This document shows positions 26,164-42,080 of a DNA stretch of 64,000 nt, in pieces. The notes below the pieces were generated by a model, which ran no database searches, was not told the origin of the DNA, and worked only from the letters and a program-made list of their open reading frames with translations. Location: NCBI RefSeq assembly GCF_048403405.1, contig NZ_CP183129.1; one strand, given 5' to 3'. Source of the stretch: Escherichia coli. Lineage in GTDB: Bacteria > Pseudomonadota > Gammaproteobacteria > Enterobacterales > Enterobacteriaceae. A program made the position numbers and the translations under genes. How positions within the stretch are numbered: the stretch's first letter is position 1; each line of letters begins with the position of its first letter.

Positions 26164-27732
26164 TTAGCGTGCCGGCTGAGTAGTCGTGGAAGACTGCTCA
26201 AAGTGATAGCGACCGGTTTTCAGGCTGCTTGGGCCGAGGCGTGCAAACTTGAACATTAAGAACAATTCTGCCACCAGGAACAGGGTATACAGGCCGCAAA
26301 TCAGCACCATTGAGAAGATGAGATCGCCTGCGGTCAGTGACGAGTTCGCCACAGCTGTCGGCAGCACTTCACCGATAGCCCACGGTTGGCGGCCATATTC
26401 AGCCACGAACCAGCCCGCTTCTACAGCAATCCACGGCAGCGGAATACCATACAGCGCGGCGCGCAGCAGCCATTTTTTCTCGCCAATGCGGTTGCGGATG
26501 ACACTCCAGAAAGAGAGCGCGATGATTGCCAGCAGCAGGAAGCCACACGCCACCATGATACGGAACGCGAAGTACAGCGGCGCTACACGCGGAATGGAGT
26601 CTTTGGTTGCCTGTTGAATCTGCGCTTCAGTCGCATCAGCCACGTTTGGCGTATAGCGTTTCAGCAGCAGACCGTAACCGAGGTCTTTCTTCATGCTATT
26701 GAACTGGTCACGAACCGCCTGGTCGGTAGAACCAGAACGCAGTTGTTCGAGCAGAGAGTACGCCTTCATCCCGTTACGAATGCGTTCTTCATGCTGCACC
26801 ATCAGTTCTTTCAGGCCGATAACTGGAGTATCCACGGAACGCGTTGCAATGATGCCCAGCGCGTAAGGGATCTGGATCGCAAATTTGTTCGTCTCCTCTT
26901 CCTGATCAGGAATGCCGAACAGAGTAAAGGCAGCAGGCGCAGGTTGCGTTTCCCACTCGGCTTCAATAGCAGCCAGTTTGGTTTTCTGCACGTCGCCCAT
27001 TTCGTAACCAGATTCATCACCCAGAACAATAACAGACAGAACGGCAGCCATACCGAAGCTGGCAGCGATAGCAAAGGAGCGTTTAGCGAAGGCGAAGTCA
27101 CGACCTTTCAGCATATACCATGCGCTGATACCGAGGATGAACATCGCGCCAGTCACATAACCAGACGCTACAGTGTGAACGAATTTCACCTGAGCAACCG
27201 GGTTAAGCACCAGCTCGGAGAAGCTCACCATCTCCATACGCATAGTTTCAAAGTTGAAATCGGACGCGATTGGGTTTTGCATCCAGCCGTTCGCAACCAG
27301 AATCCACAGTGCGGACAGGTTTGAACCGAGCGCCACCAGCCAGGTGACACACATATGCTGAACTTTACCCAGACGATCCCAACCGAAGAAGAACAGACCT
27401 ACAAAGGTGGATTCGAGGAAGAAGGCCATCAGACCTTCGATTGCCAGCGGCGCACCGAAGATATCCCCTACATAGTGGGAATAGTAAGACCAGTTAGTCC
27501 CGAACTGGAACTCCATAGTCAGACCGGTAGCCACACCCAGAGCGAAGTTGATACCAAACAACTTGCCCCAGAACTTGGTCATATCTTTATAAATCTGTTT
27601 GCCGGAAAGGACGTAGACCGTTTCCATAATGGCCAGCAGGAACGCCATACCGAGCGTCAGTGGCACAAAAAGGAAGTGGTACATCGCGGTCAAGGCAAAC
27701 TGTAAGCGCGACAGTTCGACTATATCTAACAT
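26164..27732 (-). CDS. cydA: Cytochrome bd-I ubiquinol oxidase subunit I
   Basis: Start at the second Met ([20 protein letters not shown]..., 522 aa); recognised as CydA. Confidence 0.96.
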
Positions 27733-28069
27733 CATGACTCCTTGCTCATCGCATGAAGACTCCGAGAGTGAACCCCGTTAGAAAGGGTCACACGCATGCC
27801 CCAATACAAAATTATTTGCTCGCCTCTATCGTTGCCATTTCATCAAAAGAGGAAAAGACAATGATAAAAAAGTTACAAATATGTTAATGAATAAACCAAA
27901 TTGATCCCGTAATTATATTACGCCGCAAAATCCTTACAATAAACAGGTTTTTATTGAGCAAATTTGCATTTTTCGACAGTGATCAATTTATAGCGAAATT
28001 GTCACGATCTCACCAATTTGATCTACGACAATTTATCGTGTTTTGCAGATTTTTTTCAAGAATTAAAAA

Positions 28070-28083
28070 TTGATTTATATCAA
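28070..28083 (-). promoter_or_regulatory. Candidate FNR site in the cydA upstream region
   Basis: Perfect TTGAT-N4-ATCAA (ttgatttatatcaa) about 340 bp upstream of cydA; a weaker half-site match ttgatctacgacaa lies at 28018-28031. Confidence 0.55.
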
Positions 28084-28537
28084 AACCAACCAAATATGTT
28101 AATTATGTATAAACCATAGATCATTGGTGATTTTATTGTTAATTTATTGTGAAATATTTATGCAACACAATTATTACAATGAAAAGGTATAGATAAAAAA
28201 CCAGTGTTTTATTTAACAGAACCGCCTTATCCACTTTTTATAATACCAATTGATTAGATTAGCCAATTTGTTGCTATTTTACATAACATATTTTTATCAA
28301 AGTTAATTGATTGTTGCGTTTATGAGCACCGGCCGTAAGCCCGTTATGTTATTGTTTCATTAGTAATAATCACTTAAATGTATCGATGAAACAGGTATGA
28401 CTTAGCGGGAGTGATTGTTTCTGAGTGAACAGAGACCACTTTCGCCTGATAAATGAAAAATGAGCGATTTTTGCAAGTTAGTTTTTCTATAGCCGAGTAC
28501 GCTCAGCGCCTCGCTTGATTACAATGAGGTTGCTGCT

Positions 28538-29482
28538 ATGAGTCCTGATAATATCAGTTCTGCTGTCAATCGCTTCTCAGGTTGGCCATCTAATGATCCT
28601 CTAAAAACAGATAAAGAATCAATGACATCACCCATGACTGTGCAGGTAATAAAGATGATTGCCGCCATCCTTGACCCACATCGGATAGTCGTTGGAATCG
28701 ATACACTTTATACAACGCAGCGCGAAACATTTACCTCAGAGAGTCAACAGCTCATTGAATCAGCATTGCAAACACTTCATGTGATGAATTTAAATAACCT
28801 GGAAACAAATCTCGATGAGGAAGGTCACTATCTGGCTTTTGGATATAACGTTGACACTCCTGACAGAATAACCGTTTCTGCTTATAATGAAAAAAAGCCT
28901 GGCTGCTATGGCCAATGTCTTTTAATACAGGATGACGAAACAGACTTATTTAACCTGATAAAAGTTAAAATTTTTGAAGCCAGGCATAATTATGTCGCTC
29001 AATTGATGAGCGATCCGGAATTTATGTTCAAATTTAGTTATAGCGCTCAACAAAATAGATTAGAACCTCATCTTCTGGTTCCCACTTATTTCCCTCTAAA
29101 AACAAACGAACCGGTTACGCAAGAGGATGTACTGTTACTTTATCGTTTCTTTAAAATGGATGGTGATTTTAATATATTAACATCAGATGAATACATGAGT
29201 ATCATGACACCTCTGATGAAGTGTGAGCGCAGCATCCACGACCACAACAGGTATGTGACGGGCAAAGATACCCTTCTTCTGGACTATCCTCCTTCTGGTA
29301 ACCAGATATATTTCCATATTTTTCCTGACGAATCAGCAACACTAGTCCTTTATTTTTCAAACAATGACATTGAATGTTTCGTCTTTGAAAGAGATATTCC
29401 GAGCCAGTATCGCTTTTTCAAAATGTTTACCAATCTGGCACTGGTTATTGATCAGTTAACCGATGCCAATCAAATACTTTAA
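28538..29482 (+). CDS. Hypothetical protein, 314 aa, no recognisable domain; in an AT-rich block
   Basis: Long ORF in a visibly AT-rich region; polar Ser/Pro/Asn-rich N-terminus (MSPDNISSAVNRFSGWPSNDP), no signal peptide or TM segment seen; plausible purine-rich RBS-like stretch upstream (aatgaggttgctgctATG). Confidence 0.6.
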   Translation: MSPDNISSAVNRFSGWPSNDPLKTDKESMTSPMTVQVIKMIAAILDPHRIVVGIDTLYTTQRETFTSESQQLIESALQTLHVMNLNNLETNLDEEGHYLAFGYNVDTPDRITVSAYNEKKPGCYGQCLLIQDDETDLFNLIKVKIFEARHNYVAQLMSDPEFMFKFSYSAQQNRLEPHLLVPTYFPLKTNEPVTQEDVLLLYRFFKMDGDFNILTSDEYMSIMTPLMKCERSIHDHNRYVTGKDTLLLDYPPSGNQIYFHIFPDESATLVLYFSNNDIECFVFERDIPSQYRFFKMFTNLALVIDQLTDANQIL

Positions 29483-29562
29483 TTTTTATATATTCCCTGT
29501 GGCAAATATTGCTAAACAATGCCCGGGGATTAATTTTTATTACTCACGGAAAGATTTAAATA

Positions 29563-29985
29563 ATGATCCCATCTCAAATCTCTTTCAACACCCTTCCTGT
29601 CAATGCAACATACGCTTCAGAGACAACAGTTGACACACAAAAATTCTCTGACATCCTCTACTCAGCGGGGTGTTCCCTAAAGGATCTGGCTTATTTGAGC
29701 AGATGTCTGGCATCAATACATCCGACTATCGCCAAAAACATTTATGAAACAGAAAATCTCAGCGATCAAAAATTACTACATATTGATTGCCGTAGTACAA
29801 ATGAAATCAAGATAAATATCTTTTTTGGTCAACAACGAGAAGGATTAATTGAAATTAGTTCTGACACAGTCATTTTTTCGATACTGTCTTCATTGATTGA
29901 CTCCACCATTTCTAAATTTCAACACCAAAACCCCGTTAACGGTTCTGTAAATCCTGACCTATTGTATGAGGATTATACTGATTAA
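29563..29985 (+). CDS. Hypothetical protein, 140 aa, acidic, no recognisable domain
   Basis: ORF 80 bp downstream of the 314-aa ORF on the same strand; by my count about 17 Asp+Glu against about 9 Lys+Arg; same AT-rich context. Confidence 0.5.
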   Translation: MIPSQISFNTLPVNATYASETTVDTQKFSDILYSAGCSLKDLAYLSRCLASIHPTIAKNIYETENLSDQKLLHIDCRSTNEIKINIFFGQQREGLIEISSDTVIFSILSSLIDSTISKFQHQNPVNGSVNPDLLYEDYTD

Positions 29986-30532
29986 ATCCCTCCTGTCGCG
30001 AAAAATGGCCTGCGTTATTGCCAGACGTAATAAAACTTTTGATTAACGTTTCTCGTACTGGTAGCACCTTCATGTACTTTTCTTTTTTACGAAAAATCAA
30101 AAGAGCTAACAAAGGTCATAATTCGCATGAATCATTAATTATTTGTTATTTTCAACATTATTTTTACATTAAGCAGAGATGAATTGCAGTGAAATTCGAC
30201 TTAACTTTTATGAAATGCATTTACTCATGGCTAAAGCCACGTCACAAAAATGCAAATTAGAAGTAGATCACAAATATCTCAATACATCAAATCAAGTTAA
30301 TTTTAAAAATTTAATATTCATGACATTAGTTGACATAACACACTGAATTATAATGAGAATTTGAAAACACACTTTAAACAATCATTTCCCGAAAGACATT
30401 TTGAAAATAGATCAATTGCAACATTACGGTCAGATAAAGACACTCCTGTGATATTAAACCTGTGCCGTTATGAACGGCCATAAATACGACGTGTGTAACT
30501 TATTTTACTCTCTGTCTTACAAAGGATTACCC

Positions 30533-30982
30533 ATGAAGAAAGCAACACTTGTGATTGGCGTTATTGGCGCGGACTGCCATGCAGTAGGCAATAAAGTTCT
30601 GGACCGCGTTTTTAGCAACCATGGCTTCAGAGTCATTAATCTGGGCGTAATGGTCAGCCAGGACGAATATATTGATGCTGCCATTGAAACTGGTGCTGAC
30701 GCGATTGTCGTCTCCTCTATCTATGGGCATGGCGATATCGATTGTCTGGGCATGCGCGAACGCTGCATTGAGCGTGGGCTGGGTAACATCCTGCTCTATG
30801 TGGGCGGTAACCTGGTGGTCGGAAAACATGACTTCGCTGACGTGGAAACCAAGTTCAAAGAGATGGGATTTGATCGCGTCTTTGCCCCAAGTCATGACTT
30901 AGAAGATGTTTGTCAGCTGATGGCCCACGATATCAACCAACGTCATGACGTTGATACTCGCATTCTTGAAGAGGCAATCTGA
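30533..30982 (+). CDS. mamA: Glutamate mutase sigma (S) subunit, B12-binding component
   Basis: Start set at [21 protein letters not shown] (good RBS aaaggattacccATG); carries the cobalamin His-ligand motif DxHxxG (DCHAVG); close resemblance to clostridial GlmS/MutS as I recall them. Confidence 0.9.
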
Positions 30983-32370
30983 TGCAAATCGTCTCTGTCG
31001 ATATTGGATCGACGTGGACCAAAGCAGCCCTCTTCGCCCGGGAGGGGGACGCGTTAACGTTGGTTAACCACGTACTGACCCCAACCACCACCCATCATCT
31101 GGCGAAGGGTTTTTTCTCCAGCCTGAACCTGGTGTTAAACGTAGATAATGCCCTCCCCCTGTTTAACAACGGTGAGGTTGCATTGAAGTATTCCTCCTCT
31201 GCCAAAGGTGGGCTGGCGGTTGCCGCAATGGGGTTGGTGCCATCTATCACCCTGGAAACCGCGAAAGTAACCGCTCACTCTGCGGGGGCTAAAATTGCGC
31301 AATATTACGCCTACAAGCTGAACCGCCGTGATATCCAGGCACTGGAAGAAACGCAGCCCGATATTCTCTTGTTCACCGGCGGCACCGACGGCGGAGAAGA
31401 AAGCTACGGCCTGAATAACGCCCGTGTGCTGGCAGAATCCAAACTCGACTGCGCCATTATTTATGCCGGAAACCGGGATATTCAGGACGAGGTGCAGGAG
31501 ATCCTAGGGCATAAAGACCTGACCATCGTCGACAACGTTCTGCCCGATCTTGACCATCCGAACCCTTTAGCTGCACGCCAGGCTATCTGCGACATATTCC
31601 TTAAACGCATCGTTAAAGGGAAAGGGCTGGATGTCATTGTTGATAAAACAGGCGAAGAACCAATGCCGACACCATGGACGGTCTTTGAACTGGTTAAGGC
31701 AATCAGTAACGTCGATCACAGCTGGAAAGAGTTCATGCTTATCGACATGGGCGGCGCAACCACCGATGTCTATTCAGCCTGTGCCAACACGCTCTCGCCC
31801 GACACCGTTTTACACGGCGTACCGGAACCCTTCGTGAAACGGACGGTGGAAGGCGATCTGGGAATGCGCGTCTCGGCAATGGTGGTTGGTGAAAGTGCGA
31901 AAGAGTTAGTCAATGTGAATTTTGCTCAGCAACCCGCACAGCTGGACGCTTTTTATCATTACCTCCGTCATCTAGTCGCTCATCCCGACTACTTACCCGC
32001 GAATGTAGAAGAAAAATATTTCGATACCGTCCTGGCCGGACTGTGTGTGGGTTATGCCACCGAAAGACATGCGGGCACCAAAAAAGAGGTCTGCACCTGC
32101 GTCGGCAATGTCGATTTACAGATGGGACGTGACCTGACAACCGTGCGTAAAGTCGTCGGATCCGGCGGATGGCTCTCGCGTGCCAGTCAGTTCGATATGC
32201 ATCACTGGTTGAAATACCGCGAGTTAAACGACGACGGTAAACGCATTCTCTTACCGACCGAATTTGAATATTACCGCGATTCCCGGGGGCTATTACCACT
32301 GCTGGCAAACGTCGCCAGAGTCGATCCGCTGGCCGCCGCGCGCACCAGTATTCAATGCTTAACCCTATAA
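30982..32370 (+). CDS. glmL: Glutamate mutase-associated L component (MutL/GlmL-like, putative reactivating chaperone)
   Basis: 462-aa ORF whose ATG overlaps the S-subunit stop (ATGA); sits between S and E as in clostridial mutS-mutL-mutE; N-terminus [18 protein letters not shown] is an ASKHA-type phosphate-1 motif. Confidence 0.75.
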   Translation: MQIVSVDIGSTWTKAALFAREGDALTLVNHVLTPTTTHHLAKGFFSSLNLVLNVDNALPLFNNGEVALKYSSSAKGGLAVAAMGLVPSITLETAKVTAHSAGAKIAQYYAYKLNRRDIQALEETQPDILLFTGGTDGGEESYGLNNARVLAESKLDCAIIYAGNRDIQDEVQEILGHKDLTIVDNVLPDLDHPNPLAARQAICDIFLKRIVKGKGLDVIVDKTGEEPMPTPWTVFELVKAISNVDHSWKEFMLIDMGGATTDVYSACANTLSPDTVLHGVPEPFVKRTVEGDLGMRVSAMVVGESAKELVNVNFAQQPAQLDAFYHYLRHLVAHPDYLPANVEEKYFDTVLAGLCVGYATERHAGTKKEVCTCVGNVDLQMGRDLTTVRKVVGSGGWLSRASQFDMHHWLKYRELNDDGKRILLPTEFEYYRDSRGLLPLLANVARVDPLAAARTSIQCLTL

Positions 32371-36763: not shown

Positions 36764-36846
36764 AAATCCGAATACTTTTAGCCAACTGACATCCCGTCAC
36801 TTATTGCAGTTCAACACTTCAGCTATTTGTAAGGTTGTAATAGCAG

Positions 36847-36878
36847 GTAGATGCCTGAATCTCTATTCGGGCATCTAC
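36847..36878 (+). terminator. Intra-operon stem-loop (possible partial terminator or attenuator)
   Basis: 9-bp perfect stem gtagatgcc / ggcatctac with a 14-nt loop, followed by a U-rich but interrupted tract (ttctcctgattctgattt); lies between the small coupled ORF and the transporter. Confidence 0.4.
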
Positions 36879-36923
36879 TTCTCCTGATTCTGATTTATCG
36901 CCGTGCACCTGATGGAGGAAAAA

Positions 36924-40609: not shown

Positions 40610-41515
40610 TTACATCTCCTGCGGTACGACCGATTTCGCCAGCAACCATTCACGAAATTGCTGCAAGTGCGGCGAGTCAGACTTCTCTTCCTGCCACGTC
40701 ATAATAAAACGATTACCGGTACGAATAGGCACATCACAGGGAATCACCATATCGCCACTATCCAAATCATGTTGAATAGCGAACCGTGGTAACAGCGCCA
40801 CGCCGAGATTAGAGCGCACGGCGGCAATCAGCATTGAAAGCAAATCGAAACGTGGTCCGTTATTGACCAGCGGACTGCTAACGCCAGATAAAGCAAACCA
40901 CTCTTCCCAGCCAGTAATACGGGTGCTTTGATGCAGAAGTGGTAACTCAGTAAGCAGTTCTGCCACTGACAGTTTTTGATCGGACATTGCAAGCAAACTG
41001 CCGCTGCATACCGGCAAAATCTCCTCATCAAAGAGATATTCTACTTCCGCCCAGGGCGCGCAAAAATTTTCGCGCATAATGACAGCATCGTACTCCCGAT
41101 TAAGAAAATCGCCGTTATTAGCTAAAGAATGAATATTAACAATAATATCGGGATGTAACTTTGTGAATTCATGTAAATTTGGGATTAACCAGTGGGTACT
41201 AAAAGTAGGATTAACGGCAAGTTCAATAACCTGAACCGTAGGCTGCCAGGTCATAATGGTATTGGTATCGCGTTCCAGCTTATTTAATGTTTCTTTTACT
41301 ATCCCCAGGTAATACTTCCCTGCATCATTAAGAAAAATACGTTTTTTAGAGTGTGAAAATAACGGAGTATGTAAAAATTCCTCCAGCGCACTCACTTGTC
41401 TGAATACAGCACTTTGGGTTAACGCTAACTCCTCTGCCGCTCTGGTATAACTTTCATGACGTGCGACGACCTCAAAAGTCACCAGCAGCTCCGTTTTAGG
41501 TATTTTTCCTCGCAT
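40610..41515 (-). CDS. LysR-type transcriptional regulator
   Basis: 301 aa; N-terminal HTH (ESYTRAAEELALTQSAVFRQVSALEE) and LysR substrate-binding domain. Confidence 0.88.
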   Translation of the reverse strand: MRGKIPKTELLVTFEVVARHESYTRAAEELALTQSAVFRQVSALEEFLHTPLFSHSKKRIFLNDAGKYYLGIVKETLNKLERDTNTIMTWQPTVQVIELAVNPTFSTHWLIPNLHEFTKLHPDIIVNIHSLANNGDFLNREYDAVIMRENFCAPWAEVEYLFDEEILPVCSGSLLAMSDQKLSVAELLTELPLLHQSTRITGWEEWFALSGVSSPLVNNGPRFDLLSMLIAAVRSNLGVALLPRFAIQHDLDSGDMVIPCDVPIRTGNRFIMTWQEEKSDSPHLQQFREWLLAKSVVPQEM

Positions 41516-41576: not shown

Positions 41577-42080
41577 GTAACCAAAGCAGCAATAAATAAT
41601 TTATAAGAATCATGATTGACATTTATAACCCAGTAAGCCTGGCGTGACAAATATCTTAATCAGATAATAATAATCCGAAAAGCACAGCGCCTTTCGAATT
41701 ATCCGGAATCACATTAAGTGAAAATTATTAAATTGATATCATTTATCATATCTGTGGATATTATGATAAACAATCAACAAAGATTTTATTTTTGATTTAT
41801 AGCATATCCCTCTAAGAATTTTTGCGATGCTGCAATATCCGGGTAAAGACCCGATCCTGGCTGACAAATGGCACGACTTGACGATAAGCGGTGAACATCG
41901 CTTTTGTTGATTTACTTAACGCTACGGTCAAACGCTGGGAAGCCAGTGCATCAGGTAACGATTCGAAATTCGCCGTCGTTCTTATTCGTGGCTTGCGGTC
42001 GGTTGCGGCAATCCACAGTGGCTGTGGTCATGCAGTCAAGCCAGCGGTCAGATTTCGACCGTGGTTAACATTTAAGGCAT

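Follow-up and report, generated by a model that had tools for sequence, protein, structure and literature searches.

What controls the glutamate-fermentation operon that a subset of Escherichia coli strains carry is a question raised by the long AT-rich gap in front of its first gene, glmS. In the 64,000-nucleotide stretch of E. coli DNA analysed here (henceforth the window), this gap spans 547 bp (29986-30532), as delimited on the sequence and its list of open reading frames by the stop of a 140-aa ORF (29985) and the ATG of glmS (30533). Its GC content is 31.8% as against 50.7% for the window, falling to 25.3% in the segment 30127-30375, in agreement with an earlier note on this DNA that had singled it out as unusually AT-rich. 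The further reading of the whole gap as an untranslated leader was an assumption: the sole positionally conserved promoter lies a mere 82 nt upstream of the ATG. The gap is better described as a composite intergenic control region than as a 547-nt leader, and its interpretation as a B12 riboswitch is not supported. Based on comparative sequence analysis, we lean towards a reading in which it would comprise an activator-dependent, weak sigma-70 promoter with a LysR-bound box, a leader of about 82 nt, and CRP-like and H-NS input, with no RNA sensor.

The island and the anatomy of the gap

The island sits on the E. coli chromosome between cydA (26164-27735, minus strand) and sucD, and contains glmS-glmL-glmE-mal-atuA-DUF4387-gltP-fumD-cobO together with a convergent LysR-family gene. 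It is found in 1135 of the 5426 complete E. coli genomes (approximately one fifth), among them O157:H7 EDL933, and strains 4621 and MS 69-1 are 100% identical to the window. Contigs labelled as Collinsella and Citrobacter metagenome-assembled genomes also match the E. coli locus at 96-99% identity, and are probably the result of binning contamination. Beyond Escherichia, Citrobacter and Klebsiella, the glm operon has B12 genes around it, namely sumT, cobD, a pduX-like kinase, a cysG-like gene, btuBCDF and the whole cbi/cob operon, with the LysR-fumD-cobO genes located at the opposite end of the cob operon. Within the E. coli operon, a strong stem-loop (GTAGATGCC...GGCATCTAC, 36846-36880) is situated between the DUF4387 gene and gltP, and could be an internal attenuator, a processing site or a REP-like element.

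None of the island-carrying E. coli genomes has a feature annotated in the intergenic gap. In EDL933, the locus tag EDL933_RS03955 is missing between RS03960 (the 140-aa ORF) and RS03950 (glmS), and this absence suggests that a feature of the gap was formerly annotated and later withdrawn.

Comparison with close relatives separates the gap into parts of different origin (Table 1). In blastn searches, homology to E. whittamii and Escherichia sp. E1V33 ends at 28387 and restarts at 30127; the stretch absent from both relatives harbours two orphan ORFs (28538-29482 and 29563-29985) and extends 141 bp into the gap. On this homology evidence, these 141 bp are taken to be part of an insertion and to lie outside the ancestral control region of the operon. 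Further, the distance between cydA and glmS is only about 1.2 kb, with no intervening ORF, in Klebsiella, Citrobacter and Salmonella arizonae. The two orphan ORFs, which have a GC content of 37% and separate the cydA control region from the glm promoter, encode hypothetical proteins with no Pfam, NCBIfam or PADLOC match, and the 314-aa orphan protein is represented by five clusters among 5.8 billion proteins, all the named ones being from Escherichia. The 140-aa ORF is frameshifted in strain XJ5.2. E. coli MEI003 has a 327-bp tandem duplication, annotated by PGAP as a partial pseudogene, that corresponds to 29881-30207 of the window and takes in the 3' part of the 140-aa ORF along with the first 222 bp of the gap. 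A strict scan for promoters and terminators recovered no terminator and a single promoter-like site, on the minus strand at 29999-29972, which is fewer than in shuffled sequences. Two small ORFs in the gap (30018-30182 and 30179-30346) were rejected as genes: both suffer frameshifting indels in other E. coli haplotypes and neither has a Pfam match.

Table 1. Coordinates of the features in and around the glmS control region (positions of the window; the span ~-73 to -32 is relative to the predicted transcription start)
Feature	Positions	Strand	Basis and remarks
Distal gap segment, 3' tail of Escherichia-specific insertion (~28388-30126)	29986..30126		blastn; no terminator-like site
Very AT-rich (25% GC) upstream regulatory DNA	30127..30375		homologous to glmS upstream regions of other Enterobacteriaceae; variable except for short blocks
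CRP-like site AAATTAGAAGTAGATCACAAAT	30254..30275		core TTAGA-N6-TCACA, 8/10 to TGTGA-N6-TCACA
Conserved block TAACACACTGAATTA	30336..30350		ACAC..TGAT in other genera; TTGAT-type half-site; ~59 bp from box
Predicted activator box, directly upstream of/overlapping -35	30378..30419	+	order-wide conservation; ~-73 to -32
-35 hexamer TTGCAA	30416..30421	+	TTG invariant in 34 species
-10 hexamer GACACT	30439..30444	+	nAnAnT invariant in 34 species (A63, A65, T67)
Predicted 5'UTR, ~82 nt	30451..30532	+	inferred from -10; fold z -0.5
Small hairpin GCCGTT-ATG-AACGGC near 5' end	30464..30478	+	sequence; partly conserved position
Strong Shine-Dalgarno AAAGGAT before glmS start (30533)	30521..30527	+	AGAGGAT in other genera
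glmS, methylaspartate mutase S subunit, first gene of operon	30533..30982	+	Pfam B12-binding 1e-14; RefSeq annotation
GcvA-like LysR-family regulator, candidate box binder	40610..41515	-	island end; linkage to cluster

A conserved promoter module and its upstream sites

For comparison across species, 80 loci encoding GlmS relatives were collected and their upstream regions aligned. Inspection of these alignments reveals short blocks that are held at fixed distances within otherwise diverged AT-rich DNA. The most extensive is a promoter module (30378-30444) whose alignment is free of indels across 34 species of Enterobacterales, and in which the invariant positions are an ATCA, a TTG, an A.A.T situated 21 nt further on and a few positions further upstream. 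The spacer between the -35 and -10 hexamers is 17 bp in every one of the 34 orthologs, with no indel and a freely varying sequence. Scanning with a simple sigma-70 position weight matrix retrieved TTGCnn-17-nAnACT in 28 of 28 Enterobacteriaceae orthologs (mean 5.0 bits, minimum 4.1; next register -1.3), as the only sigma-70-like site with a conserved position among them. The same geometry recurs in Yersinia, Morganella, Budvicia and Hafnia (TTGTnn-17-CACATT) and in Yokenella (TTGCAG-17-CATATT). The E. coli version, TTGCAA-17-GACACT, thus combines recognizable hexamers, a spacer in the 16-18 bp range and a position kept among orthologs, and can be predicted to be a weak sigma-70-type promoter, with transcription starting at about 30451 (30450-30452) as judged from the position of the -10 hexamer. 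Variation within the species follows the same pattern: among eight haplotypes of the E. coli clade, variable sites number about 100 in 29990-30375 and ten in 30430-30532, whereas 30376-30429 has none; just upstream of that invariant stretch, the haplotypes differ at about 26% of sites.

Two other promoter candidates were discarded. The perfect TTGACA (30330-30335) and TATAAT (30349-30354) are separated by a 13-bp spacer, and the TATAAT is specific to a group of strains, with other E. coli reading TAAAAT or TAACAT in its place. A sigma-54 promoter (TGGCAC-N5-TTGCW) finds its TTGC in the module, but the -24 element reads AAATAG, devoid of the GG, and Yersinia has TTGT.

The upstream half of the module is occupied by the box. 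Its 21-mer TTTTGAAAATAGATCAATTGC (30399-30419) is identical in 33 loci from at least nine genera, including Escherichia, Citrobacter, Klebsiella, Salmonella, Enterobacter, Lelliottia, Pluralibacter and Pseudescherichia, while variants such as TGAcAATAaATCAATTGt and TGACAATAAATCAATTGT, among others, occupy the same register in Yersinia, Morganella, Hafnia, Budvicia and Yokenella. The core of the box is kept across five families of Enterobacterales. It displays dyads of the T-N11-A type, with TGA-N7-TCA centred on 30408 (about -43); the T-N11-A of TGAAAATAGATCA (30402-30414) is retained in all 34 species, TATTTTGAAAATA forms a perfect dyad in Citrobacter and Salmonella, and the conserved positions recur every 10-11 bp. 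No second copy with up to three mismatches is present in the 64-kb window, and a regulon search with a model of the box recovered the glmS promoter only, along with non-significant matches upstream of fumD in Yersinia and another species (E 1.1-1.6). Metagenome matches to TGANAATANATCAATTG were set aside as chance occurrences in low-GC genomes, the true locus accounting for one of 80 among the matches listed. The box is most likely an activator site.

Two further blocks are discernible in the AT-rich DNA upstream. The CRP-like site is kept across genera of Enterobacteriaceae as AAAAyArGA-N6-TCACAAA, with its TCACA 135-137 bp upstream of the box (139-140 bp in three divergent lineages), and its half-sites are invariant within E. 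coli. Its centre (30264.5) is at about -186.5 from the predicted start, outside the standard class I and class II positions (-41.5, -61.5, -71.5 or the like). The ACAC..TGAT block is fixed at the tabulated distance from the box in 28 orthologs and lacks any variable site in the E. coli clade. The near-constant spacing of the CRP-like site, the ACAC..TGAT block and the box, despite the divergence of the sequence between them, fits an architecture of DNA-protein contacts. Klebsiella, Citrobacter and Salmonella have a second TCACA element (AAATTCCGTTAC-N6-TCACA), some 80 bp further upstream than the CRP-like site; E. coli has not kept it and reads CGTCACAAAA at 30239-30248 instead.

In functional terms, the CRP-like site would probably add catabolite control, and the DNA of 25-32% GC around these sites would, judging from its composition, favour silencing by H-NS, which would explain the silence of the operon in the laboratory. 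The earlier expectation that the region holds a promoter along with silencing or activation sites stands as regards the promoter and, with the invariant box and the CRP-like site, probable activator sites; as to silencing, the base composition is of a kind that suits H-NS.

Candidate regulators and competing readings

The best candidate for the protein that binds the box is most likely the cluster's own GcvA-like LysR-family regulator, as suggested by phyletic pattern and gene neighbourhood. Orthologs of it are distributed among the taxa that have the cluster, and in five gene orders it is linked to genes of the fumD-cobO, cob, btu or glm sets. The E. coli gene is convergent, after cobO and 10 kb from glmS. 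The Yersinia gene lies upstream of fumD-cobO and diverges from sumT-pduX-glmS, that of Yokenella diverges from btuCDBF-glmS, and two further Enterobacterales carry it next to fumD-cobO, where the cob operon ends. Against the assignment, Morganella and Hafnia retain the box although no gene of the LysR family lies within 10 kb of their glmS. Under the favoured reading, the LysR regulator would bind the box and activate the weak promoter, presumably with a metabolite of the pathway as its effector. No copy of the box is found upstream of the LysR gene itself. On the minus strand at 41731-41739, some 220 bp before the start of the LysR gene, ATATCAATT exactly reproduces the core of the box variant of Budvicia, Morganella and Hafnia and might be an autoregulatory site; the probability of its chance occurrence is roughly estimated at a few percent.

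The persistence of the box in Morganella and Hafnia, despite the lack of a nearby LysR gene, could alternatively point to a global regulator of the CRP/FNR type, such as FNR itself, acting at a class II position in place of the cluster's LysR protein. Indeed, TGAAAATAGATCAA contains a perfect ATCAA half, agrees with TTGAT-N4-ATCAA at seven of ten positions and is centred on 30408.5, i.e., -41.5 to -42.5 from the predicted start. Moreover, methylaspartate ammonia-lyase activity is said to have been found by Kato and Asano in 1997 to appear under oxygen limitation. However, the left half (TGAAA, TGACA or TTACT) never matches TTGAT, and the symmetric reading of the site has a spacer of 5 rather than 4 bp. 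Since FNR has one and the same specificity in all these genera, both halves of a genuine site should be kept. The match is seven of ten in the Enterobacteriaceae and six of ten in Yersinia. We regard the involvement of FNR or a comparable global regulator as unlikely.

Equally to be considered is that the box functions as an operator located downstream of another promoter. In such a scheme, transcription would be driven from the ACAC..TGAT block, with AACAAT (30377-30382) as the -10 hexamer and a start at about 30389, and would be blocked by a repressor occupying about +10 to +30. The fixed distance between that block, which can be read as TTGAT-N4-ATGAA, and the box is in line with this proposal, as are a nine-of-ten match of the Citrobacter youngae block to the FNR consensus and the anaerobic nature of the pathway (PMC4682846). 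Against it, the FNR-like right half is unconserved, with a mean match of 5.1 of 10 (range 1-9) and, in E. coli, five of ten with an extra base; AACAAT does not belong to the registers at which a promoter is conserved; and the invariant TTG-N21-A.A.T would be left unexplained. Repression from such an operator hence appears improbable.

It counts against the favoured reading that 21 consecutive invariant bases exceed what a single transcription-factor site usually needs. The box could also be the operator of a previously unstudied effector-sensing regulator or, less likely, a new ligand- or sRNA-responsive RNA element transcribed from an upstream start; taken together, we view these options as rather doubtful. 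Were an unstudied regulator indeed involved, B12-dependent glutamate fermentation would be coupled to the availability of a metabolite or cobalamin at the protein level, and such control would replace the riboswitch logic of other B12 operons.

This leaves the supposition that most of the gap is transcribed as a long 5' leader holding an uncharacterised riboswitch or other structured RNA that senses B12 or glutamate. The operon is B12-dependent, the invariance of the 21-nt box equals that of a riboswitch core, and promoter-like sequences are present further upstream, for instance TTGTTA-16-TACATT at 30143-30170; additionally, transcriptional read-through from the upstream ORF is possible, since no terminator is present 3' of it. 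However, the covariance models offer no backing for such an RNA. A cmscan of 27500-31500 against Rfam (E ≤ 10) returned no cobalamin or other bacterial family and just weak noise from eukaryotic snoRNA, miRNA and lncRNA families, bearing out the previous failure to identify a B12 box, and 17 orthologous loci gave no match at the gathering score. RNAalifold likewise predicted no consensus pairs and no covariation for 25 genera, and the fold z-scores against shuffled sequences are close to zero (-0.52 for 30451-30560, -0.04 for 30361-30560 and -0.22 for the whole gap). The promoter-like sites further upstream vary in position among the orthologs. The invariant positions, on the other hand, coincide with the TTG of the -35 and the A.A.T of the -10 hexamer at a fixed 17-bp spacing, which marks the module as a DNA element. 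Sensing of B12 by an RNA in the glmS leader would thus have no part in the LysR-based reading, and a long leader with an uncharacterised RNA, which had been raised as a possibility on first inspection, is very improbable.

The short palindromes of the gap, to which attention had been drawn in the same context, occur at chance frequency: there is one perfect 6-bp hairpin as against 1.56 expected, and 71% of shuffles do equally well. That hairpin, formed by GCCGTT (30464-30469) and AACGGC (30473-30478), has a 6-bp stem and a 3-nt loop made up of the ATG at 30470-30472; the sequence upholds the description of this ATG as in frame with glmS (63 nt, no stop) and without a Shine-Dalgarno sequence. 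Only the E. coli clade has this ATG: E. whittamii reads GCCG-CAGAAAA-CGGC, and other genera have unrelated hairpins or none. A hairpin of unrelated sequence occupies the same position in 13 of 23 lineages (z < -1; mean z -1.3); Enterobacter and Pluralibacter lack it, and a deletion removes the segment in C. amalonaticus. The E. coli hairpin, one version of this optional feature, could stabilise the 5' end of the mRNA.

Finally, a leader peptide encoded by a small upstream ORF (TTG 30401 to TGA 30449; MKIDQL...) can be effectively refuted as the regulator of the operon and retains next to no probability: an ORF of constant length ending at a conserved TAT-TAA can be read in most Enterobacteriaceae, with a purine-rich stretch 4-5 nt upstream of its start, but codon-position statistics reveal no coding signature (11, 12 and 11 variable columns at the three positions, with entropy highest at the second), premature stops interrupt it in C. 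sedlakii and Citrobacter NCU1, its start is CTG in Klebsiella and Buttiauxella, and it is missing in Yersinia and Morganella despite the retention of the box.

Implications and relationship to known systems

The gene cluster has been described previously, with the LysR-family gene noted (Kronen and Berg 2015; PMC4682846), and O157:H7 failed to show methylaspartate ammonia-lyase activity in all of the conditions tested (PMC4682846). Our literature searches found no paper on ECs0761-0766 and no study of the regulation of the cluster, a transcriptome paper on Yersinia making no mention of it. The invariant box and its likely LysR partner are previously undescribed. Viewed as a whole, the control region appears to be of an undescribed yet conventional kind, namely an AT-rich, deeply conserved, activator-dependent promoter with a short leader. 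Within the 547 bp, the present analysis narrows it down to a module of about 75 bp, defined by exact coordinates, and names one candidate regulator. No condition has been found so far under which E. coli expresses the pathway of the island; the box and the LysR candidate provide a handle on what switches this silent pathway on in the gut. Many opportunistic Enterobacterales likewise carry the glutamate-fermentation island.

The closest parallels are the sigma-70 promoters controlled by LysR-type regulators, such as those of GcvA/gcvT, MetR/metE and CbbR/cbb. In common with these, the glm promoter has a weak -10 and a partial -35 hexamer, approximately 40 bp of conserved DNA from about -73 to -32, T-N11-A dyads and a linked LysR gene. 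It differs from them in that its strongest dyad is at about -43 to -49, whereas the classical high-affinity site is at about -65, and in that the E. coli LysR gene is convergent at the far end of the operon rather than divergent, with no autoregulatory copy of the box found. The region also resembles promoters that combine CRP with a second activator, through its CRP-like site with a perfect TCACA half, though this site is about 186 bp from the predicted start and thereby in neither a class I nor a class II position. It further recalls the H-NS-silenced islands of E. coli, through its 25-32% GC control DNA, its horizontal acquisition and its silence in the laboratory.

The resemblance to leaders with a cobalamin riboswitch (RF00174; those associated with btuB, cob and eut) lies in the gap being a long non-coding region that precedes a B12-related operon; in contrast to them, it has no covariance-model match, B12 box or conserved secondary structure, and its predicted 5'UTR is only about 82 nt long. 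Lastly, the clostridial clusters for the methylaspartate pathway share the same pathway genes (glmS, glmL/mutL, glmE and mal) under a dedicated regulator, which is of the GntR family (Kronen and Berg 2015, Fig. 4; PMC4682846), whereas the enterobacterial cluster has a LysR-family regulator, unrelated cis-elements and ties to the cob and btu genes.
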